A stretch of DNA of 63,913 bases, counting the filler, from Thraustochytrium aureum (taxonomy: Eukaryota): the NCBI GenBank assembly GCA_012862495.1. It is 5 parts of 3 records of this genome, joined end to end, with 100 filler letters (N's around TTAATTAATTAA, not from the genome) between each part and the next. Parts side by side here need not be neighbours in the genome. Positions count along the whole stretch, not along the records: positions 47,509 to 59,569 come from BLSG01000360.1; 4 more parts are not named here. One strand, 5' to 3'. Each line of letters begins with the position of its first letter. Within the stretch, counting starts at the first letter, position 1. Below the pieces are notes generated by a model that saw only the letters and a program-made list of their open reading frames with translations, was not told where the DNA came from and did no database searches. Of this stretch, positions 7,497 through 63,016 are shown piece after piece. Position numbers and translations under genes: made by a program.

Positions 7497-9009
7497 ATGT
7501 CTGCGGACGAGGAGAACAAGCCGGTCCCGGCCGACGCTGTCGCCGGCGACGAGGTCGACGTGAGCGGCGATGGCGGCGTGATGAAGAAGGTGCTTCGAGG
7601 CCGGGACCGGGGCCACACCGCAGGCCGGCGACCAGGTCAAAGCGCACTACACCGGCACCCTCGAAGACGGGACCAAGTTCGACAGCAGCCGCGACCGCAA
7701 CTCACCCTTCCAGTTCACGATCGGGCAAGGCCAAGTGATCAAGGGCTGGGACCTCGGCTTTGCCTCGATGAAGGTCGGCGAGAAGGCCATCTTGACCATC
7801 AAGAGCGATTACGGTTATGGCGACTCTGGGTCGCCGCCGAAGATTCCGGGCGGCGCCACGCTCATCTTTGACGTCGAACTCCTCTCGACGGGCCCCAAGC
7901 CCAAAGAAAAGTGGGAGATGAACGCGACCGAGCGCCTCGAGTCTGCCGTCAAAGAGAAGGCCAAGGGCGTCGAAGCCTTCAAAGCGGGCAACATGGAGGA
8001 CGCTGTCGAGAGCTGGAACGAGGCGATCGACTTTATCCAGTACCTGGACGACCCCTCCGAGGAGCAGGCCAAGGAGGCTGACGAGCTCAAGGTCTCGCTG
8101 AACCTCAATCTGGCCCAAGCCAACATCAACCTGAAGGAGTACAAGGAGGCTATCCGGTTTGCGACCGCGGCCCTTGAGACGTCCGCTGACAATGTCAAGG
8201 CGCTGTTCAGGCGCGGAACCGCCCAGCTGCGGCTGGCAAACTTCCGGGAAGCCAAGGAGGACCTGATGAAGGCCTACAACGCGGACCCGAAGAACAAGGC
8301 CGTTCGCGACGAACTCGCCAAGCTCAAGAAGGCGGTGCAGGACGCCAAGGCCAAGGAGAAGAACGTGTTTGGCAACATGTTTTCCAAGGTTGACATCTAC
8401 GACGACAAGCCCAACGTGGTCCCTTCCATCGCCAACGACAAGCACAAGGACGTCGCGCGGTGCTTCTTCGACATCAAGATCGGCTCGGACGAGCCGGAGC
8501 GCGTCGAGCTCGAGGTCTGGAAGGACACCACGCCCAAGACCGCAGAGAACTTTCGCGCGCTCTGCACCGGCGAAAAAGGGTTTGGGTACAAGGGCAGCGG
8601 GTTCCACCGTGTCATCAAGGGCTTCATGATCCAGGGCGGCGACTTCACCAACGGCGACGGCACTGGCGGCAAGTCGATCTACGGCGAAAAGTTCGAGGAC
8701 GAAAACTTCGCCTCCAAGCACACCGAGGCCGGCCTGCTCTCGATGGCCAACGCCGGGCCTGGGACCAACGGGTCGCAGTTTTTCATCACGGCCGCGCCGA
8801 CCCCGCACCTGGACGGCAAGCACGTCGTCTTCGGCCGCGTCACGAAGGGCATGGAGGTCGTCAAGAAGATCGAGAACCTCAAGACCGGCGCAAGCGACCG
8901 CCCGGAGGACGCCGTCACCATCGTCGACTCGGGCGAGCTCATGGAGCAGGACGGCGAAGAGGACCCGGCCAACGCCCCGGAGCCGCCACAGGCCGAGGAA
9001 ACCGCATAG
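7497..9009 (+). CDS. Dual-family immunophilin FKBP-TPR-cyclophilin (FCBP-type); 1-nt frameshift near 7595
   Basis: [44 protein letters not shown]...[10 protein letters not shown]; three TPRs ([21 protein letters not shown]); cyclophilin [17 protein letters not shown]...[15 protein letters not shown]...[16 protein letters not shown]...[10 protein letters not shown]. Confidence 0.95.
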
Positions 9010-21426: not shown

Positions 21427-21527
21427 NNNNNNNNNNNNNNNNNNNNNNNNNNNNNNNNNNNNNNNNNNNNTTAATTAATTAANNNNNNNNNNNNNNNNNN
21501 NNNNNNNNNNNNNNNNNNNNNNNNNNA

Positions 21528-38966: not shown

Positions 38967-39857
38967 GGTACGCTGGCAGGCCCGTGCGAGCTGTGCGGCC
39001 CTTGCGGGCTAGGCGCCCAGCGGTGCAAGCGCGCGCGACTGTTGCTTCCGCGGCTCTCCGTGCTGGGGCTGGGGGCCCGTGGAGGGGGGGAGGGGGTGGA
39101 AGGGGGAGGGTGCTGGTCAGCGCGAGACTGGAGCGTCCACGAGCCCTGACAAGCCCTGCGCTGCTGCGCGAACGCCCTCCCTCGGGCGGCGCCGCTCGCG
39201 TGCCGGCCCAGCGCCCGCCTCCTGCCTTTCTCTGGCCGTTCCGCGACTGGCCTCGCCCTCTTGCAGCGGCGTCAGCGCGCTCGCTAGCTCGCTGCGCCTC
39301 TGCACGCACTGACGCACGTACACACGTTTGAAAGGCGGCTGGCCTTTTGCGCAAGCGGCCAGCAACTCGCGCTGCCGCAGCTGCTGCTCCCGGCAAACAA
39401 GCCCCCTGGCGCCCCTGCTGCTGCTCGGGCAGCTCGGGCAGCTCGGCGCTGCTGCTCTGCTGCGTGCTGGCCTGCAGTGTTGACTGCTGCTGGGCGGTTC
39501 GCTCGCTTGGCAATTGCGGCTGCTGCTACACGCGCGACAGCCAGCTTCTCTCTGCCCTTCAATCCAGCATCATCTTTCGCGGAGCCCACCCAGGGCGACA
39601 AAACTGACGCAAGCGTGGGCCGCCGGTGTGAGGCGCGGCAAGGGTTTCGCCCGTTCTTGAAGGTCGGCCTCGCTCGCCCACCAACCGGGGAATAATATAG
39701 GCCTACCGCTGCACAAACGCACTCAGGCTACTACTAGGCTAGTACGAGCAGATCAGTNNNNNNNNNNNNNNNNNNNNNNNNNNNNNNNNNNNNNNNNNNN
39801 NTTAATTAATTAANNNNNNNNNNNNNNNNNNNNNNNNNNNNNNNNNNNNNNNNNNNN

Positions 39858-47407: not shown

Positions 47408-48220
47408 ANNNNNNNNNNNNNNNNNNNNNNNNNNNNNNNNNNNNNNNNNNNNTTAATTAATTAANNNNNNNNNNNNNNNNNNNNNNNNNNNNNNNNNNNN
47501 NNNNNNNNTTGGAAAGCGCGCGAGCGCTCTCCGGCACGGGCGGGCATCCCTGCGCTCTTCCTGGCTCTCCGGCCTGCATTTTTTAAGCGCGAGCGCGTTG
47601 GCTTTAGGCTTTTGGCTCGCGGCTGCTCGGCTGCTCGGGTGCTTGCTTGCTTGGCTGTGCACATGTTCCCACCTACTGGCTACTTCGAGTACAACCTCGC
47701 CCCCCTGGACATGGTTGGTCCCGCTGCGAGCTCACCTATCTTTACCGGTGTCCTTCCGCCACTTTTCTTCGCGCAGTGGGAGGTGAGCCTCGCTGATGGG
47801 CGGCCCAGACACCAACCACATGGAGTACATCAAGTGCACGGGAAGCTTAGGATGGCCGCGGTGCCTGGGATGGCCGCGATTGGCCGATCGGTCCGAGCTT
47901 TCGTTCGTGGTTGTCGATGTCGACTGATGCTGGCCAATTTTGCTACAGCTGGCCCGGCCAGGCCGCCAGCCGCCTTTTGTTTCAAAATTGTCGATGGCCT
48001 TGGCCGAGTGCGGCCGCAAAGGTTGGTGGCCAGGGCATTGTTGAGTGCTGAGCGGCTCCTGCGCCTTGTCAAGCAAATAGAGCGCGCAAGCTCTGTTTTT
48101 TTAAAGAATCCTCTGCCCGAAAGGGCCTTTCGCAGACGTTCTGCGCGGTGAAAGTAGCTACTGGCCGGGTCCTTCCAGGGCGTCGTTTTTTTCGCGGTTG
48201 GCCAGTGCCGCTTCGTGGGT

Positions 48221-52215: not shown

Positions 52216-55068
52216 CTATACGGTGGGGGTTTCGTCGTCGGCGGCGACGTAGGTTGCCTTGGGGAGATCGGGAGCAAAGACTTGCGCCGAGGGAGCCAGC
52301 GAGACCGCGTTTGGCGTGCCACCGGAAGGAGTCGCAGCCGCACGTCGCCATGCTGCCATGACTAGAACTGCAACGATGGCGCCAAGTGCGGCTGCCCCGA
52401 CAGCTGTGCCAATCGTGGCTTCGATCGGCAGGCCTTGTGCGGCGGCCGAAGAGGTTGGGTAAGACCCATCATTGCCAGTTTCGTCGAAGCTGGGCGTGGG
52501 AGCCAGTGTCTCGGGGTCGGGCTCCTCCCATGGCAAGCCAGGACGTTGGTTGGTAGCCGAAATTCTGGAGGACTCGACGACCTGACCGACGGCTTGGCGA
52601 AGGCACACCATGGTGATGCTGCGGGCATAAATGGACTCCTGCTTGGCGTTGGCGACGACGCAAGAGTGAAAGCCTACTGTGCTGTCGAAACCATAGTCGT
52701 CGCCGATTGTCCCAGCAAACTCAATGGCACTTGCGAAAGAAGTCAAGGACGACTCGCCGATCAACCAGGCTCCGTAGCGAATGTCGAGCGCCGCAACGGC
52801 GTGCAACGTACCGGCAATGGTTGTAGCAAACTGAGGGCGGATGGCAGTCCAGTGCACCAAAAGCGTGCTGGTTGCGTAGTCGTATGTGCTTGATGGGCGG
52901 GACACGACGATCTCTGTCTCGCCGGCGAGGCCGTGCGCCGACTCGAGGGCGGGGAAAGCGCCCACTGCCCAATCCCCGTCGCGCAGGGTCTTGGCCGACG
53001 TGTACGAGATGGCAAACTGGCTGCGCCCGCCTCGGAATACAGTCCGCGTCATCACCACCGGGCCGTTATCGTACGAGTCGACAAACGCAAACCCGCAGTC
53101 GGTCGCGCGTGCGTACATCTGCGTCCACTGGATGTCAGTCGCGCCGCTTGGGTAGGNNNNNNNNNNNNNNNNNNNNNNNNNNNNNNNNNNNNNNNNNNNN
53201 NNNNNNNNNNNNNNNNNNNNNNNNNNNNNNNNNNNNNNNNNNNNNNNNNNNNNNNNNNNNNNNNNNNNNNNNNNNNNNNNNNNNNNNNNNNNNNNNNNNN
53301 NNNNNNNNNNNNNNNNNNNNNNNNNNNNNNNNNNNNNNNNNNNNNNNNNNNNNNNNNNNNNNNNNNNNNNNNNNNNNNNNNNNNNNNNNNNNNNNNNNNN
53401 NNNNNNNNNNNNNNNNNNNNNNNNNNNNNNNNNNNNNNNNNNNNNNNNNNNNNNNNNNNNNNNNNNNNNNNNNNNNNNNNNNNNNNNNNNNNNNNNNNNN
53501 NNNNNNNNNNNNNNNNNNNNNNNNNNNNNNNNNNNNNGTCAAAGGCCTCGGTATAAATGATTTCAATCTCGTTCGAGTTGGGGTCGGAGGGTGCGACCTT
53601 GCCGATCCTCAAGGCGCTTGAAACGTTCACCGCAACGGTGTTTTTCCCCCAAGCCGAAAGGCAGTGGGAGGCCACAAAGCAGGCCATGCTTGGGGGCGTG
53701 AAGCTTTCATAGGGCGGCGTAGCATACTCTTTCACCACTTCAGTGTCGATCGGGGGGGGATCCAAGCGACGAAAGCTTCCGCAGTTTGGCCTCTGAACTC
53801 GAAAGATTGTGCAATTTGGCCTTGGAACTCGGTCTCAAGCCCAACAACCGTGTGAAGCCCGTGAAAGCTTGGACCGAATCCGATCTTTTGCGTTGCGACG
53901 ACGGCGCGTCTGGGGACACTGGGCACCGCCAGCGACACTGGGCTGTACGTCTTGCCATTGTGGATGTCCTTGTCGGGGTTTCCCCATCGCCTGCTGGTGA
54001 TGTCCCAAGGCCATATGTTCGTCCGTTTCAGGTCGTTTAGGTCTGAGTTGGATTGGACATTGTCGGCGACAAGGAATGCGTCGCCCATCTCAGCACCGCA
54101 TGCGACACGACCGTGTTTGATCCTCCGCTCGGGCGTCGCGTCCCACCAGGTCCCACCTTTGTCGTCCGAGTAGGCCACGATGAACTCGTACGTGTTGCTT
54201 GGTTCAGAGATCTGACCGCGAAGCGCACTGAGGAGCCACAAGCCTTGCGCCGACTCACACACGTGCATGGAAATGATGTACGCCCCGTACAGGCCGTCTG
54301 GCTTGGTGACAAAGGGGAGCTCGGCCTGGCGTCCGGTGCTCTGTATCGCACCGATCGTCGTTAGGTCCACGGTGCTAATGGACAGGTCCTCGTTGACCAG
54401 GACTGCGTGGGCTCTGATATTGCCCTCTCGCTGAGAGCCAACGACGAGGGCGCCTGCGCACGGCGCATCCTCAGTAGACGACGGGTAAATGGTCGCCCCG
54501 AGTTCGCTCTCGTCTGGATCAGACGCGTCGGAGACGCCGCTGTAGAGGAGCTCTCTGCCTCGCGAGATGGTGGCAAAAAGCATCACTCTGTCACCTGTGG
54601 GTTGAGACGGCCTCGCGGACAACTCCCAATGCTCGACAGTGAAGGAGACGATTTCTCCGGACGAGTCGCGTGGGGTCACCACCTTTTCTTTCCAGATCAG
54701 TCCACGGTCGACAGAGACGAGCATGTAGAAATTGAACAACCCCTCGCACGCGATGGCAATCACGTCGTCCATCCATGCGGCTTCCACGCGGTTGCAAGGC
54801 TGGGTGAACTTGGGGACGTCTAAAGGCTTCCATTCAACGCCGAACTCGTCGTTGCTCACCACCACGTGGTCAGCAGTAGATTCAAACGAGTTCATGACCG
54901 CGATGCAGCTCGGCGACCCGCCCTGGTCGCACGCCACGACGAGCATGCCCGTGGCAGCGGGCAACGTCTGGCTATTGGGCAAAGTTATGCTTTGAACAAC
55001 CTCGTCGTCGTCGCCAAAGCGCCGGGGGCCACCAGGGCGACAAGCACTGCTAGTCGTACAGCCCACAT
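52216..55068 (-). CDS. Asp-box (BNR-like) type-I membrane protein, family copy 1; frameshifts near 54990 and 53755; gap 53157-53537
   Basis: Signal MWAVRLAVLVALVAPGALA; VACDQGGS.SCIAVMN; Asp-boxes VSVDRGLIW and YSDDKGGTW; APTP stalk; TM IGTAVGAAALGAIVAVLV; tail PKATYV. Confidence 0.75.
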
Positions 55069-55836
55069 CCTGCGTTGCCTGCCTCCTCGCTTCGCTGCTT
55101 GGCTTTTCGTTTGCTCGCGTTCGACTCTGTTGCAGGTCTGGACTTGCTTGGTGGACTTCCATCGGAGCCCACAGAAAGTCCACAGCATGCATGCATGCAC
55201 AACTCGGCTCGTGCTGGGCAAAGGGCAGAGTCCATGGAGTTCATGTCGCCTGCACCACAGGCGGGTGCAGTGCTCTTGATTGAGCACCGCCCTCACTGTA
55301 CTCCCTGTACCGCTTTGTTCTTTGTTGCTCTGCTCCACTCACTGGCGTAGTAAGTTACGAAAAGTAGTGAACACACCTCTTGCACGCGTTCTTCAGGCTG
55401 TCCTGCATAGGAACCTACCTACCTCTGGCACGCCGCGGCCCGGGGCTGAAAGGGCTGTGGCGGCAGCAGCAAGCACACGCACGCCCACATCTCTCGTGGA
55501 TGAAAACGAAAAAAAAAGCTCTTCGATCAAACAATCACCAAAAGAGACAGGAAGAATCTCTCACTTGAACGTGGTATGACGACCAGCACAGGGAGAGATG
55601 CACACTGGCTTTTGTGAACCCGCCGCCGGGGAGCACGCACGGAGCGGATCCGTGAAATCGATGGACGCGGATGGCCGCCCTTGTCGAGCGCGTTGGGGCA
55701 GCGCACGCAAGTTTGCCTTTGAAAAAAAGCAAGGAAGCCGCTCGAGGATGCGCCAAAAGCCAGCGCCGGGCAAGTCCAGCAGCATCGGCTGTTTTGCTAG
55801 ATGGCTCTGTTGAGGGCCCACCGCTCGGAGCGTCCT

Positions 55837-58133
55837 TCACACGGACACAGACGCCTCCAGCTCGAGCGGGTCGAATTCTAGGTAGGGGTGGCGACGCTCC
55901 CGGTTGCGCTTTCGAATGTTGGCGGCGATCTCGGTGAGCCTGGATGTGAGTTCGATGTGCAGTTCGCTGGCCTTCGCGGTGAGGTGCAGCTGTGGGTAAT
56001 AGTCCAGCATGTGCGGCATGGGCGTGGAGGTGAGCGCCATGACGAGCGCGAGCATGAGGTGCGAATTTCGGTCGGCCATGACTGCTCCCGGCCGGATCTT
56101 GCCCTGAAAGTACGGGTTGGCGACCTCCGCTGTCAGGTCGCCCACGAGCTCGTGAACGGCGGTGACATGAAACATAAAGGTCGCCACGATGGAGGCCACG
56201 TTGGCGCCCTCGGCGAAGGGCGGAAGGCCTGGCATGCCCAAATCTTTGGCACCCCACTGCGCCCAAAACGCCTGCACCGCTGAATCGGTGGCCAGGTCGG
56301 GCAGGTGGTGGTCCAAGTAGGCCTCCACGTATGCCTTCAAGGCGCCGTACACCTCGAGCCCGTCGGTCACGTAGGAAGGTCGAGCTCTTCCGGCGCTAGC
56401 GGCGTGCCCTGCAGGTTGCGCGCGAGCACAGCTTGGTCAAAGGGCAGCATCTGGAAGGCGGCGCGGTGCTCGGCGATGAGCTTGACGAGGCCGTCCTCGT
56501 AAGCCAGCCCGAAGGCGCGGTGGATCATCGAGAGCGGCGGCAGGAGCGACTTGGCCGCGCCGGCGTTGATGGCACCGCTCCGGTACACGAACGGCTTGAG
56601 CAGGCGGCGCAGCGGGTGGTTCGCGGGGAGCCGCTCGCGCGNNNNNNNNNNNNNNNNNNNNNNNNNNNNNNNNNNNNNNNNNNNNNNNNNNNNNNNNNNN
56701 NNNNNNNNNNNNNNNNNNNNNNNNNNNNNNNNNNNNNNNNNNNNNNNNNNNNNNNNNNNNNNNNNNNNNNNNNNNNNNNNNNNNNNNNNNNNNNNNNNNN
56801 NNNNNNNNNNNNNNNNNNNNNNNNNNNNNNNNNNNNNNNNNNNNNNNNNNNNNNNNNNNNNNNNNNNNNNNNNNNNNNNNNNNNNNNNNNNNNNNNNNNN
56901 NNNNNNNNNNNNNNNNNNNNNNNNNNNNNNNNNNNNNNNNNNCACGGCGTGCACCTGCCACGCCGTCTCCTCCATCAGCGTGATGGTCGGCATGTCCTCG
57001 TCTACGGCAGAAAACTCGAAGGGCAGCTGCTCGACGGTCCAGCCGCGCGCCCCGAGATGCGTGTGCACTTCAAGTCGCGGCACGGGTCCCATCGGCACGG
57101 GCACGCGGATGTGGCCTGGCTTGAACACCGGGATTTTGGAGTACAGGGTGCGGAACAGGCGGATCGCGGCCACCGTGGGGCCGTCAATCGGGTCGTCGCC
57201 GAGGCCGGCGGCGGCGGCCAGCGCCCCGTCAACCGCGTCGTGCACGGCGGCCGCCTCGCCCGCGTCCAAGTCGTGCGTGTGAACCGCGGCGACCAGGACG
57301 TCCTTGCGCGACTGCGCGACCGCCTTGGGGAGCGCTCGCTCGCTGGTCTTGACCAGCAGCCGAGTCCAGAGGGAGCCGCCGCTCACCTGGAACTGACTGT
57401 CGTCGCACATGCTGTGGCGCACTGCAACTGCGTGAGCGAACACCCAGCTCCCGTCGTACAGGGCCAAGGCCACGTCGCGCGTCAGCCCCGACGCCTGCTG
57501 GCCGGCCACCGAAGTGTCCGCGAGCATCCTGACGACCACAGGGAACTCGCCGCCCATCAGCGCCTTGTGAAAGCCGCCCCGCGCGGTGCGGTCGATCCAC
57601 GCCTCGACCTCTTGCGCGCTCAGCACGCCGTCGCCGTCCGCGTCGGCGGCGGCGAATAGGGCGTCCACCTTGGCGTGCAAGGCCGAGGAGGGCGAGGGAA
57701 TCTCGCCGCCGGACGCCTTGTCGAAGACGCCCGCGTCGCTCGGCGAGTGCACAATGCGCGACAGGCCCTCACGCGAGAGGTCCACTGTCAAGCTCGGGTT
57801 GCCTTTGGACAGCGAGCCGAGGGTCGCGGCGATCGCGAACACGGCTGCCCTGCACTTGAGGGGCGGCAGCGCAAAGCAGTTGAGCATCTGCGCGCCCGTG
57901 TACAGCTCTGCGAGCTCGAGCGTAAAGTCCGCGTTCAGATCGAAGAACGCGATATGCTTCTGCAAGCCAGTCGCGTTCTCGTACGGCCCGCCATGTCCGA
58001 ACAACCTCTGGTATGAAGGCAGCTGGTCCACGTGGAACGCGCACGGGCTCTGCGGCGGATCCAGCAACGTTCGCACGGACCAGAGCGAGCCCACAGCGAC
58101 GGCCGCGGCCGCCGCGACCAGCCAAGCCCACAT
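55837..58133 (-). CDS. Caleosin/peroxygenase (EF-hand) - lipoxygenase fusion protein; gap 56642-56942; 1-nt frameshift near 56375
   Basis: Signal/anchor MWAWLVAAAAAVAV; caleosin motifs LQKHIAFFDLNAD, IVHSPSDAGVFD, EF-hand DADGDGVLSAQEV, GLTRD....LYDGSW; LOX motifs LPANHPLRRLLKP...AIN, P-YVTDGLEVY.AL..YV..Y, D..VQAFW, MFHVTAVHELVG, C-terminal P..LEASVSV*. Confidence 0.8.
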
Positions 58134-58305
58134 CACAAGAAAGAACTGCAGCTGGGCGAGCGCCCTGGCCGCCTGCCTACTCTGCGACACGAGAGTCTTC
58201 GCGCCGTACGGCCTGTGCAACCTGTATGTACTCGCCCTCGCGCCGCCAGCCGGGGACTGCCTGACCCAAACCGTCGAGGATACTCCTGTTGTGTGTGGGG
58301 ACTTG

Positions 58306-58367
58306 TCGTCCGACGTGCTCGTCCGACGTGCTCGTGACCCATGGTCCGACGTGCTCGTGACCCATGG
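58306..58367 (+). repeat. Short nested tandem repeat upstream of the fusion gene
   Basis: tccgacgtgctcg x3 interleaved with gacccatgg x2. Confidence 0.8.
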
Positions 58368-58544
58368 CCCTCCTCGCGAGTGCATGGATCATTGTGCGTC
58401 CGCGTTCGGGCTGGCGCGCCATGATGGCTTCATCGTCCGTGGAGCTTTTCCCAAGCGCTATCATTCCTTTGTCGCCTGTTTGGGGTCTCCACACCCACCT
58501 CAACCCCAGGCATGGCAAGCGCAACAAACCAAATTAGTGCGCTT

Positions 58545-58984: not shown

Positions 58985-59934
58985 CTACAGGCGCGGGTCT
59001 TCGCCCTCGACTACGTAGGTCGCTTGGGGGATATCGGGCACTACCGATATCGCAGTGGGAGCGACCGCCCTGTCCGTGGCGCTGGAAGCCGTCGCGGACG
59101 CGCCTTGCTTTGCTCCGTTGGCGAGAACGCCGACAAAGACACCGACTACAGCCGCCCCGATTGCAACGCCAATCGTAGCTCCAGCGGACATGCCCTGCGC
59201 AACAGGTGTGCTCGATTCGATCGGAATGGAGGGCCCACCATCGCCTGGTCCATCGCCCGGCTCGACAAAGCTGGGCGTTGGAGCCTGCGTCACGATGTCG
59301 GGCTGGTTCCACGGAAAGCCGGGTTTGACATTGGTAAGTTCTATTTGGGTGGCCTCGACGACTTGGCCGGCGCTGAATTGGGCTGCGGATTGACGGAGGC
59401 ATACCGTGGTGATGCCGTTGACGTACACGGATTGCCGATTCGCGTTGGCGACGACGCAAGAGAAAATGCTTGTTGTGCTGTCGAATCCGAACTTGTCACC
59501 GCTCGCCCCAGCAAACTCTATCGAACGCCCGTGAAACCTTAACGACTGCTCGCCGATCAACCAGGAGCCNNNNNNNNNNNNNNNNNNNNNNNNNNNNNNN
59601 NNNNNNNNNNNNNTTAATTAATTAANNNNNNNNNNNNNNNNNNNNNNNNNNNNNNNNNNNNNNNNNNNNCCATGCTAAACGCGGGGACAGCCAAGGGGGT
59701 CCAGAGGGCGCCCCATTCGTCGTCGCTCACCACCACCTCGCTGGGCCCAGCGGTAAACCTGTTCATCACGGCGATGCAGCTCGCCGACCCGCCTTGGTCG
59801 CAGGCAACCGCGAGCTGCCCTGCTCCAGAAAACTCCTTGTCCACGCTGTAACGAACGGCGGCTTTGAACAGCCTCTCCATCGCCAAGACGCCGGGGGCCG
59901 CCACGGCGACAAGCACCGCCAAGACAGCCCTCAT
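58985..59934 (-). CDS. Type-I membrane protein family copy 2; middle missing in an unsized gap
   Basis: MRAVLAVLVAVAAPGVLA.ERLFKA, VACDQGGSASCIAVMN; C-terminal part FGFDS..CVVAN..ITTVCLR..PGFPW.QPD..APTP, TM, PQATYVVEGEDPRL*. Confidence 0.8.
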
Positions 59935-60622
59935 CCTGCTCTGCGTTCGTTCGTCCTGTCGTACGCAGAGCACACCAAGTACTCTGTGCAGGAGATCGAT
60001 GCGGGTCTGCTGGTTGCCGAGCGCGTGCGTGAGTGATGAAGTGAAAACATCCCGAGCTCATCTGAAATGCGCGCCTGTGCATCGCTCGTGTGCGATCATG
60101 AGCGTTCGACGAGGCCTTTTCGTTGGGGCGGGGGGAGCAGAGCCTCCTTGGTTGGCGCATGAAACAGCCGAAACCGCGGCAGTGACGCCTCACGAAATGT
60201 CCAGCGCTGCCCCTGCCGTTTCGTGCATCGTTTGAGGCTGGACTCTTGTGGGGCTGGCACTTTCAGTAAAGTACCTACTGCTCGGCGTACTGTTGGTTGC
60301 GGCAAGCCCGAGCGCTACCCCTGACCTGAGCAAGTCCAGGGCCACGTCAAACGAGTCGGTTTGAACGACTCGGAGGTGCTCTTCGCATGACAGATTCGCT
60401 GGTCAATGAGGCAGAATCAGGGCAGTAGCCAGTTCTCGGTCGCCAGCGTCGCCAAGTCGGACCCTAGGGTACACACCTTTTACCCTAACCTACGGTCGCT
60501 GACCCTTCAAGAGAAACTATTGACATTCAGAATGATAACGTTGGATGAGACCAAACATGCTCTTTATGAACGTGGATGTGGCCGCTCGGCGGTGCATCGC
60601 GCGCCCACCAGCGCGACAAGGC

Positions 60623-62500
60623 CTACAAGCGCGGGTCTTCGTCCTTGACTACGTAGGTTGCTTCGGGAATGTCGCGCGCAGCGGATATTGCAGTGGGAGC
60701 GACCGCGCTGTCTGTGGCGCTGGAAGCCGTCGCGGACGCACCTTTGTATGCTCCGTTGACGAGAATGCCGACCAAGATACCGAGCACAGCCGCCCCGACA
60801 GCAATGCCAATCGTAGCTCCAGCAGACAGGCCCTGCGCAACATTTGTGCTCGATTCGACCGGAGAGGAGGGCCCGTCATCGCCTGGGTCGATGAAGGTGG
60901 GCGTTGGAGCCTGCGTCACAATGTCGGGCTGGTCCCACGGCAAGCCGGGCTTGCTGCTTCCGACATAAACTTCGGAGGCCTCGACGACTTGGCCCGTGAT
61001 GAATTGGTCAGTGGATCGACGAAGGCACACCGTGGTGATGCCGCTGTCATTATTGGGCTCTTGCTTCACGTTGGCGAGGACGCAAGCGTGAATGCTTGTT
61101 CTGCTGTCGAATCCGAAACTGTTGCCGCTCGCCCCAGCAAACTCTATAGCACTTGCGTAGAACGTCAACGACCGCTGGCCAATCAACCAGGACCCNNNNN
61201 NNNNNNNNNNNNNNNNNNNNNNNNNNNNNNNNNNNNNNNNNNNNNNNNNNNNNNNNNNNNNNNNNNNNNNNNNNNNNNNNNNNNNNNNNNNNNNNNNNNN
61301 NNNNNNNNNNNNNNNNNNNNNNNNNNNNNNNNNNNNNNNNNNNNNNNNNNNNNNNNNNNNNNNNNNNNNNNNNNNNNNNNNNNNNNNNNNNNNNNNNNNN
61401 NNNNNNNNNNNNNNNNNNNNNNNNNNNNNNNNNNNNNNNNNNNNNNNNNNNNNNNNNNNNNNNNNNNNNNNNNNNNNNNNNNNNNNNNNNNNNNNNNNNN
61501 NNNNNNNNNNNNNNNNNNNNNNNNNNNNNNNNNNNNNNNNNNNNNNNNNNNNNNNNNNNNNNNNNNNNNNNNNNNNNNNNNNNNNNNNNNNNNNNNNNNN
61601 NNNNNNNNNNNNNNNNNNNNNNNNNNNNNNNNNNNNNNNNNNNNNNNNNNNNNNNNNNNNNNNNNNNNNNNNNNNNNNNNNNNNNNNNNNNNNNNNNNNN
61701 NNNNNNNNNNNNNNNNNNNNNNNNNNNNNNNNNNNNNNNNNNNNNNNNNNNNNNNNNNNNNNNNNNNNNNNNNNNNNNNNNNNNNNNNNNNNNNNNNNNN
61801 NNNNNNNNNNNNNNNNNNNNNNNNNNNNNNNNNNNNNNNNNNNNNNNNNNNNNNNNNNNNNNNNNNNNNNNNNNNNNNNNNNNNNNNNNNNNNNNNNNNN
61901 NNNNNNNNNNNNNNNNNNNNNNNNNNNNNNNNNNNNNNNNNNNNNNNNNNNNNNNNNNNNNNNNNNNNNNNNNNNNNNNNNNNNNNNNNNNNNNNNNNNN
62001 NNNNNNNNNNNNNNNNNNNNNNNNNNNNNNNNNNNNNNNNNNNNNNNNNNNNNNNNNNNNNNNNNNNNNNNNNNNNNNNNNNNNNNNNNNNNNNNNNNNN
62101 NNNNNNNNNNNNNNNNNNNNNNNNNNNNNNNNNNNNNNNNNNNNNNNNNNNNNNTTGACAACATGTTGGTCAAACTCGCGCAAGCGATGGCGATCACGCT
62201 GTCCATCCATGCGACCTCCACTCGATTGCAGGGCACGGTAAACTCGGGCACAGTCAACTCGGTCCAAACGGCGCCCTGTGGGTCGTGGCTCACCACGACC
62301 TCGCTGGGCCCAGCAGCATGCCTGTTCATCACAGCGATGCAGCTGTCAGACCCGCCTTGGTCGCAGCCAACCACGAGCTGGCCTTGTCCGCCAGAAAACG
62401 CCTTGTCCGCGCTCTCACGGATGGCGGCTTTGAACAGCCTCTCCGTCGCCAAGGCGCCGGGGGGCACCATGGCAACGAGCAGTGCCAGAACAGCCCTCAT
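60623..62500 (-). CDS. Type-I membrane protein family copy 3; gap 61196-62154
   Basis: MRAVLALLVAMVPPGALATERLFKA, VGCDQGGSDSCIAVMN, PCNRVEVAWMD; C-terminal TM and PEATYVVKDEDPRL*. Confidence 0.82.
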   Translation of the reverse strand: MRAVLALLVAMVPPGALATERLFKAAIRESADKAFSGGQGQLVVGCDQGGSDSCIAVMNRHAAGPSEVVVSHDPQGAVWTELTVPEFTVPCNRVEVAWMDSVIAIACASLTNMLSXXXXXXXXXXXXXXXXXXXXXXXXXXXXXXXXXXXXXXXXXXXXXXXXXXXXXXXXXXXXXXXXXXXXXXXXXXXXXXXXXXXXXXXXXXXXXXXXXXXXXXXXXXXXXXXXXXXXXXXXXXXXXXXXXXXXXXXXXXXXXXXXXXXXXXXXXXXXXXXXXXXXXXXXXXXXXXXXXXXXXXXXXXXXXXXXXXXXXXXXXXXXXXXXXXXXXXXXXXXXXXXXXXXXXXXXXXXXXXXXXXXXXXXXXXXXXXXXXXXXXXXXXXXXXXXXXXXXXXXXXXXXXXXXXXXXXXXXXXXXXXXXXXXXXXXXXXXXXXXXGSWLIGQRSLTFYASAIEFAGASGNSFGFDSRTSIHACVLANVKQEPNNDSGITTVCLRRSTDQFITGQVVEASEVYVGSSKPGLPWDQPDIVTQAPTPTFIDPGDDGPSSPVESSTNVAQGLSAGATIGIAVGAAVLGILVGILVNGAYKGASATASSATDSAVAPTAISAARDIPEATYVVKDEDPRL

Positions 62501-63016
62501 CCTGCTCTGCGTTCGACCTGTTGACGTGCGCTACTCGCTGCAACCGGGGCTCGATGCGATCCGGGTCTGCTGGCACTGGCTGCAACAACGGTGCGCGTGC
62601 GCTATCGGCAGGTACTCTACCACTCTTCGAGTAGGTGCTGCCCCGAAGGCAAGTGCAGGAGAGCTCTCTCGAGAGGGTGTGTAGTAGCTTGGTGAGTTGT
62701 CACTGGCCAGTTCCGAGGCGGGCAAGCTCCCTTCGCGCTGAAAAGGTGCTTCTTTTTTCGTTTTGGTGGTCGAGAACTCGACGACAAGGATGGGAGTGCA
62801 GGGTCATGGCAAGTGGCAAGTGGCAACTCGCAAGTGGCATGGCATGGCAGAGAGAGAGTAAGTGTGCAAGGAGGCTCCGACTTTGTCCAGTTCTCGGTCG
62901 CCAGCAGCAGAAATCTCAAGATAGACACTTGACATTCAGGAATGAAAAAAGGGAAGTGATCCTGGATCTGTGCGCGAAAATGCATCGCGTGTCCATCGCG
63001 GGCCTATAGACGCGTC

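Follow-up and report, generated by a model that had tools for sequence, protein, structure and literature searches.

A minus-strand gene in the window (the whole stretch of Thraustochytrium aureum DNA analysed here, 63,913 nucleotides with filler) very probably encodes a caleosin domain and a lipoxygenase (LOX) domain at the N- and C-terminal ends of a single protein, and it is likely (probability of roughly 0.6) that this protein is a two-step oxylipin enzyme. That the fusion itself is real can be held with near certainty. A preliminary description of this DNA had proposed a one-polypeptide caleosin-LOX fusion, and the proposal is borne out by an intact ortholog, P0151, which carries both domains in one chain; a search for the same domain pair elsewhere thus succeeded in a second genome. 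The gene is under purifying selection. The LOX-to-peroxygenase coupling that the architecture suggests is plausible, given that the predicted catalytic residues are kept, and the alternatives to it are weighed below.

The gene consists of a hydrophobic N-terminus, the caleosin domain, a helical linker and the lipoxygenase, in that order (Table 1), and the caleosin-like and lipoxygenase motifs claimed earlier on this strand all lie where they had been placed. The first of two frames is free of stops from the ATG at 58133 through the assembly gap to a stop at 56367 (stop-to-stop span 56367..58388), while the second, past a frameshift, ends at the stop at 55837-55839. The reading frame given in the preliminary description (56367..58385) stands as a frame, but the top of that ORF track does not stand as the start, since the ATG at 58133 fits the alignment to P0151 better. 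The protein would measure ~765 aa at the nominal gap size and ~805-865 aa if the gap matches that of relatives, and no introns were seen in the sequenced parts of the gene. The window sequence is eukaryotic, with 62% GC and long uninterrupted frames, and holds no second caleosin or LOX gene.

Table 1. Features of the caleosin-lipoxygenase fusion gene, in window coordinates.
Feature	Position	Strand	Basis
Whole gene, caleosin-lipoxygenase fusion	55837..58133	-	Frames and P0151 alignment
Start (ATG) and hydrophobic N-terminal stretch (aa 1-20), predicted to be a signal peptide or signal anchor	58074..58133	-	Kyte-Doolittle, P0151 alignment
Caleosin/peroxygenase-like domain (aa 49-243)	57405..57989	-	Pfam PF05042 above cut-off, profile, AF2
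His60, first conserved caleosin histidine	57954..57956	-	H in 43/44 rows of alignment A5
His129, second conserved caleosin histidine, with a one-residue insertion after it	57747..57749	-	H in 41/44 rows; kept in P0151
EF-hand loop 1 (aa 65-76), the caleosin EF-hand	57906..57941	-	Acidic positions 1, 3, 5, 12 kept, Gly6 replaced
EF-hand loop 2 (aa 164-175), canonical	57609..57644	-	Pfam EF-hand matches
Four conserved Cys (C31, C86, C94, C243) and sequon N53-A-T	57405..58043	-	Common to relatives; disulfides and glycosylation predicted
Helical linker (~aa 244-350) and start of LOX domain (~aa 351-397)	56943..57404	-	P0151 alignment
Assembly gap, 301 N; expected site of the first two iron histidines	56642..56942	.	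P0151 H571/H576 in equivalent span
LOX core past the gap (NHPLRRLLKP region, Ala at stereo-determining site)	56379..56639	-	P0151 and profile
One-base deletion (frameshift) in the window	56371..56378	-	Absent from two other runs
LOX C-terminal part, terminal Val and stop	55837..56370	-	P0151 and profile
Third iron His of LOX	56152-56154	-	Sequence
Gly at LOX fourth-ligand site	56140-56142	-	Alignment

The fusion gene is flanked by three minus-strand paralogues of an uncharacterised membrane protein. They are 60-70% alike in parts (53100-55090, 58985-59960 and 60623-62530) and have a signal-like start, a C-terminal membrane helix in two cases and no Pfam match. On the plus strand, 7585-9009 encodes an FKBP-TPR-cyclophilin dual-family immunophilin in one frame. 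Frameshifts also seem to interrupt several other ORFs of the window, as would fit an error-prone assembly. Four spacers (21427-21526, 39758-39857, 47409-47508 and 59570-59669) each consist of 44 N, a 12-base linker with stops in all frames and another 44 N.

The caleosin assignment holds by profile: the window domain scores 31.6-33.5 bits against Pfam PF05042 (cut-off 27; aa 53-229 counted from the ATG at 58133), that of P0151 scores 46.3 bits, and Pfam EF-hand matches fall at aa 156-180 of the window protein. The lipoxygenase assignment (PF00305) came out divided, as P0151 passes with 28.0 bits against 23.6, but the LOX pieces of the window taken alone remain under the cut-off (E 0.079 and 0.0084). 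Further evidence comes from a clade LOX profile, built from related lipoxygenases with the window, P0151 and a LOX fragment, P0035, left out. The two LOX pieces of the window score 89.8 and 133.8 bits on it, against at most 2.2 and 5.9 bits for 200 shuffles of each piece. Similarly, a caleosin profile built without the window gives the N piece 119.4 bits, with shuffles reaching at most 2.7. Local profiles match the caleosin domain at E 1.9e-36, the LOX core past the gap at E 1.5e-27 and the C-terminal part at E 7e-41. In the ESM Atlas the N piece falls to caleosin clusters at 0.87 and the search with the C piece returned no usable match. No P450 domain was matched by Pfam in P0151 or in the window protein at E up to 1.

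A protein search of 1.84 billion representatives returned 154 matches, the best 150 of which are all caleosin/EF-hand or LOX proteins. P0151 (861 aa, encoded on a 6079-base contig) sits in a cluster that is represented by the 241-aa fragment P0035, and other fusions could likewise go unnoticed where a fragment represents the cluster. It matches all three pieces of the window protein in order, linker included: the N piece with 45% identity over 392 aa, the linker with 39.6% over 154 aa, the middle piece with 67% (P0151 588-671) and the C piece with 50.5%. The LOX profile match begins at its residue 342, its sequence matches a PDB lipoxygenase at E 9e-8, and Pfam finds no PLAT domain in it. Among the 153 proteins compared, P0151 is the only one that has both domains together (1/153), and two metagenome scans yielded no locus.

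Window and P0151 are sisters both in a caleosin tree (45 rows, quick search; SH-aLRT 83) and in a LOX tree (65 rows; local support 99). Because each of the two domains has its nearest row in the other protein, the pair points to one ancestral fusion kept over ~50% divergence. Differences between strains tell of selection on the gene: of the 20 in coding parts, which are distributed across the caleosin, linker and LOX regions, 15 are silent where 25% would be expected (P 4e-6). This count leaves out two substitutions beside the indel and includes variant 57628, probably from a foreign contig, whose retention is conservative because it counts as non-silent.

In the caleosin half, the motif around the second histidine (Table 1) carries its insertion and, in P0151, has lost the Asp that follows. 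Loop 1 retains the D/N/D..E pattern with Gly6 changed to Phe and is predicted to bind calcium; loop 2 occurs in most caleosin-like matches and is therefore not special to the fusion. The preliminary description had envisaged a lipid-droplet anchor. This is not favoured, since no proline-rich knot is evident in the window caleosin domain and the features of the N-terminal region favour a lumenal or secreted protein. Specifically, a hydrophobic N-terminus (Kyte-Doolittle peak 1.7 in the window, 2.8 in P0151) and four Cys are common to the window, P0151 and the proteins P0001 and P0020; C31, C86 and C94 are missing from the other 41 rows of the caleosin alignment, and an N-glycosylation sequon is common to the window and P0151 (N53/N56). 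From these features we infer entry into the secretory pathway rather than delivery to lipid droplets. The available text of one paper also gives predicted signal peptides in some plant caleosins (PMC9807586). The central helix (aa 91-110) is amphipathic in the AF2 model and followed by one Pro; its 19-residue hydropathy is below 1.5 in the window and 1.61 in P0151, in an alignment without a named plant caleosin. As to P0001 and P0020, they are stand-alone caleosin-like proteins with a signal-like N-terminus and the four Cys, and probably form a secreted caleosin subgroup; P0001 is without both caleosin histidines.

The AF2 model of the caleosin domain (window 57399-58133, pLDDT 82) has its best whole-domain structural matches among fungal UPOs and chloroperoxidase (Z 7.9, 7.7, 7.7 and 6.9 over 169-182 residues, rmsd 3.8-4.4). 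The best UPO match has Z 7.9 and rmsd 4.2 with 176 residues aligned, and chloroperoxidase has Z 6.9 and rmsd 4.4 with 182, while EF-hand proteins align over ~70-85 residues; Foldseek on the same model returned EF-hand proteins only, at E >0.001. Chloroperoxidase is classed with EF-hand-like folds. The model hints at a shared fold of caleosins and haem-thiolate peroxygenases, a lead at Z below 8 that may come down to a common helical arrangement. None of the 44 caleosin-like members has a Pfam haem-thiolate peroxygenase match, and the PCP motif is absent from the caleosin domain. Cys31 was considered as a UPO-like thiolate ligand and dropped: judged by what we take to be the thiolate ligand position of chloroperoxidase and UPOs, and by where the aligned ranges start (model 29 to chloroperoxidase 7, model 37 to UPO 2), that position lies ~20 residues downstream.

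These properties can also be read in another way, which is unlikely but deserves weight: the caleosin domain could be a calcium-sensing, membrane- or lipid-docking module in place of PLAT, on a protein that makes hydroperoxides only. Two EF-hand loops, the amphipathic central helix, the lack of a PLAT domain in P0151 and the altered second His motif would suit such a module, and structural roles are also known for caleosins (PMC5216026, in the text available). Yet both haem histidines are kept in two proteins that are only ~50% alike, the best fold matches of the domain are haem peroxygenases, and related lipoxygenases have haem-type partners at the same place, all of which speaks against a mere docking module.

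Turning to the lipoxygenase half, P0151 has H571, H576, H757 and a terminal Val. The three His are near-invariant across 49 rows of the clade, whose C-terminal residue is Ile in 25 rows and Val in 12. At position 761, the site of the fourth iron ligand, 48 of the 49 rows have Gly; for diatom lipoxygenases the accessible part of one study names Asn, His, Gln and Ser at this site, Gly not being among them (PMC10968607). We found no assayed member of this Gly-site clade. In the full-length AF2 model of P0151, residues ~350-861 are modelled with confidence as a LOX fold, which Foldseek matches to 15-LOX-2 at E 7e-17; the model supports the LOX part alone, not the caleosin part or the domain arrangement, and a complex prediction of the caleosin domain with the LOX domain gave no answer (score 0.00).

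Fusion is a recurrent feature of this clade. In 37 long or top matches scanned, the domain ahead of the lipoxygenase is a P450 in 6 cases, a patatin/cNMP module in 2 and an alpha/beta hydrolase in 1. Two oomycete proteins among the 6 with a P450, both matches to the window protein, P0036 (OQR84821.1, CYP5619C2) and P0025 (OQS07119.1, CYP5851A2), are known P450s whose C-terminal domain is called heme peroxidase/dioxygenase in the text and Lipoxygenase superfamily in the supplement of the report on them, as far as it was available (PMC5919972). Judged by sequence, these CYP5619/CYP5851 proteins are P450-LOX fusions with intact iron histidines. The earlier list of known LOX fusions, which comprised catalase-like allene oxide synthases and PLAT domains, was therefore incomplete. 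Since the clade often recruits partners, haem enzymes included, a hand-over role is supported, yet fusion is also common for this clade; and because non-haem partners such as patatin and hydrolase are joined as well, fusion need not mean peroxide hand-over.

Other members of the clade deserve mention. The Gly-site lipoxygenases span oomycetes, bacteria and other eukaryotes, with P450, patatin/cNMP and hydrolase partners. By eye, P0105 and P0119 have catalase-like N-termini, for which Pfam and PDB gave no or weak support, and P0068, P0099, P0106, P0116, P0144 and P0145 have P450-like N-termini, likewise with no or weak Pfam/PDB support. A caleosin gene was found near bacterial LOX-clade genes at none of 3 loci. 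At two Bacteroidota loci (L001 11533-13263 and L003 7645-9363) a Gly-site lipoxygenase lies tail to tail with a second, more distant one.

The assembly of the window itself adds two problems. The window does contain the 1-nt frameshift claimed near 56375. In X1 and X2, runs that belong to two separate studies, it is missing: a contig of each has one extra base behind 56373, with which the lipoxygenase reads on for 267 residues to the same stop. What the window shows is therefore either a mistake of the assembly or a private allele. As to the gap, the preliminary description had counted a frame running across 301 N in favour of the fusion, an argument that has to be rejected. The N-run is a size estimate and allows ~101 residues over the compared span, where 36 of 37 relatives have 144-204 and would need 40-100 more. 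None of 8 runs has a contig that bridges the gap. An X1 contig reaches 282 bases into it, and the first 30 of these are open, in frame and encode a PMLDSP stretch that the lipoxygenase P0011 also has at this place; the linker region is covered by an X1 contig (57144-57710) and an X8 contig (57090-57349). A rough control with the tandem paralogues beside the gene suggested that another gap of the scaffold (959 N) had been sized to within ~30 bases. Given the short N-run and this control, the window copy may have a real deletion inside the gap. The HxxxxH iron-ligand motif that had been predicted in the gap is present in the equivalent part of P0151 (H571, H576), but the window's own pair would fall in the N-run.

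It is therefore possible, though improbable, that the lipoxygenase is atypical or weak (Gly ligand, terminal Val, perhaps another metal), or that the window copy is partly lost in the gap, leaving a protein that acts chiefly as a caleosin, its lipoxygenase being decayed or only lipid-binding. The Gly at the fourth ligand site, the shortness of the gap in the light of the paralogue control, the frameshift in the window and low Pfam LOX scores across the whole clade agree with this. Against it stand the near-invariance of the three His in 49 rows, a C-terminal Ile or Val in 37 of the 49, the confident LOX fold of the P0151 model, the silent bias of variation in the LOX part and the absence of the frameshift from other strains. 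The idea that two separate genes or a scaffold misjoin produced a false fusion draws on a gap bridged by no contig and on a large protein search that, among the matches listed, returned only stand-alone caleosins and caleosin-free lipoxygenases, but it is largely refuted and has very little chance of being right, as the stop-free frame of the caleosin already runs into the LOX domain ahead of the gap, the 30 bases into the gap continue LOX-like sequence and an independent genome has the whole chain.

On the preferred reading of a two-step oxylipin enzyme, the LOX domain would make a fatty-acid hydroperoxide from a polyunsaturated fatty acid, and the caleosin domain, with its predicted haem and calcium binding, would reduce this to a hydroxy acid and transfer the oxygen onto a double bond, giving an epoxide. 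The N-terminus would direct the protein into the ER, after which it would be membrane-anchored or secreted, presumably with disulfides on the caleosin domain. The LOX metal may be held by the C-terminal carboxylate together with the three His, and a water molecule may fill the Gly position. An Ala at the stereo-determining site of lipoxygenases predicts S products, and S-hydroperoxides would accordingly be expected here. The hydroperoxide could reach the caleosin haem by short diffusion, as in coral catalase-LOX fusions, Ca2+ on the EF-hands might tune the second step, and the reaction would run without an O2-independent cofactor such as NADPH. In the available text of one study, caleosins use LOX hydroperoxides as their best co-substrates (9- and 13-HPOD for date-palm caleosins), while many annotated caleosins are without proven activity (PMC5216026). 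A bolder version, whose chances are somewhat short of even, sees the protein as a secreted or lumenal, disulfide-bonded, calcium-tuned LOX-peroxygenase that would be a third haem-partner class, converting free PUFA and O2 to oxylipins of the hydroxy and epoxy types within one chain, without NADPH or an external supply of peroxide, with a lipoxygenase of the unassayed Gly-site clade and a caleosin half that is a fold relative of fungal haem-thiolate peroxygenases.

Searches of accessible full texts yielded no caleosin-lipoxygenase fusion, though subscription papers, InterPro architecture tables and caleosin-survey supplements could contain one, and the available portions of three family surveys (PMC6309107, PMC5957377, PMC11971793) do not mention fusion or fused. 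Outside plants and fungi, the accessible text of one of them lists caleosins only in a myxobacterium, Capsaspora and a nematode genus (PMC5957377). The caleosin-LOX fusion is thus apparently undescribed so far, while haem-enzyme/LOX fusions are already known as a theme. What is known of the LOX-to-peroxygenase pathway in plants and fungi was deduced from enzymes that occur separately, and the fusion links both steps genetically. It also (i) provides one protein for testing hand-over, calcium control and the unsolved caleosin haem site, (ii) extends the oxylipin role of caleosins beyond plants and fungi, (iii) opens up an unassayed LOX clade with repeated partner recruitment and (iv) may serve as a self-sufficient biocatalyst in the production of hydroxy and epoxy fatty acids.

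Several known systems invite comparison. UPOs and chloroperoxidase are the best whole-domain structural matches to the caleosin model (Z 6.9-7.9, 170-200 residues) and would share the overall chemistry, but identity is 6-11% and the window domain has no Cys where the range offsets place the thiolate ligand. The oomycete CYP5619/CYP5851 proteins have a C-terminus of the same LOX clade with a P450, not a caleosin, as partner, and functional data on them were not found in the available parts of the report (PMC5919972). Coral and cyanobacterial catalase-related AOS-LOX and HPL-LOX, as described in the accessible text of two papers (PMC5617202; PMC11719350), likewise place an N-terminal haem domain to act on the hydroperoxide of a C-terminal lipoxygenase. 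In contrast to these, the present fusion has an EF-hand caleosin (PF05042) instead of a catalase fold, a lipoxygenase of a different clade and a predicted secretory N-terminus, and its expected products are hydroxy and epoxy acids rather than allene oxides or aldehydes. The caleosin/peroxygenases of plants and fungi likewise have an EF-hand, two His and a central hydrophobic helix (PF05042; available text of PMC6309107 and PMC5957377). They are stand-alone proteins of 25-30 kDa, whereas the window domain is part of a ~800-aa fusion and differs in having a second canonical EF-hand and four conserved Cys and in showing no clear proline-rich knot. Among stand-alone proteins, P0001 and P0020 (231-247 aa) are its closest relatives. 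Plant and fungal caleosins use LOX hydroperoxides, and the same co-substrate is proposed for the fusion.
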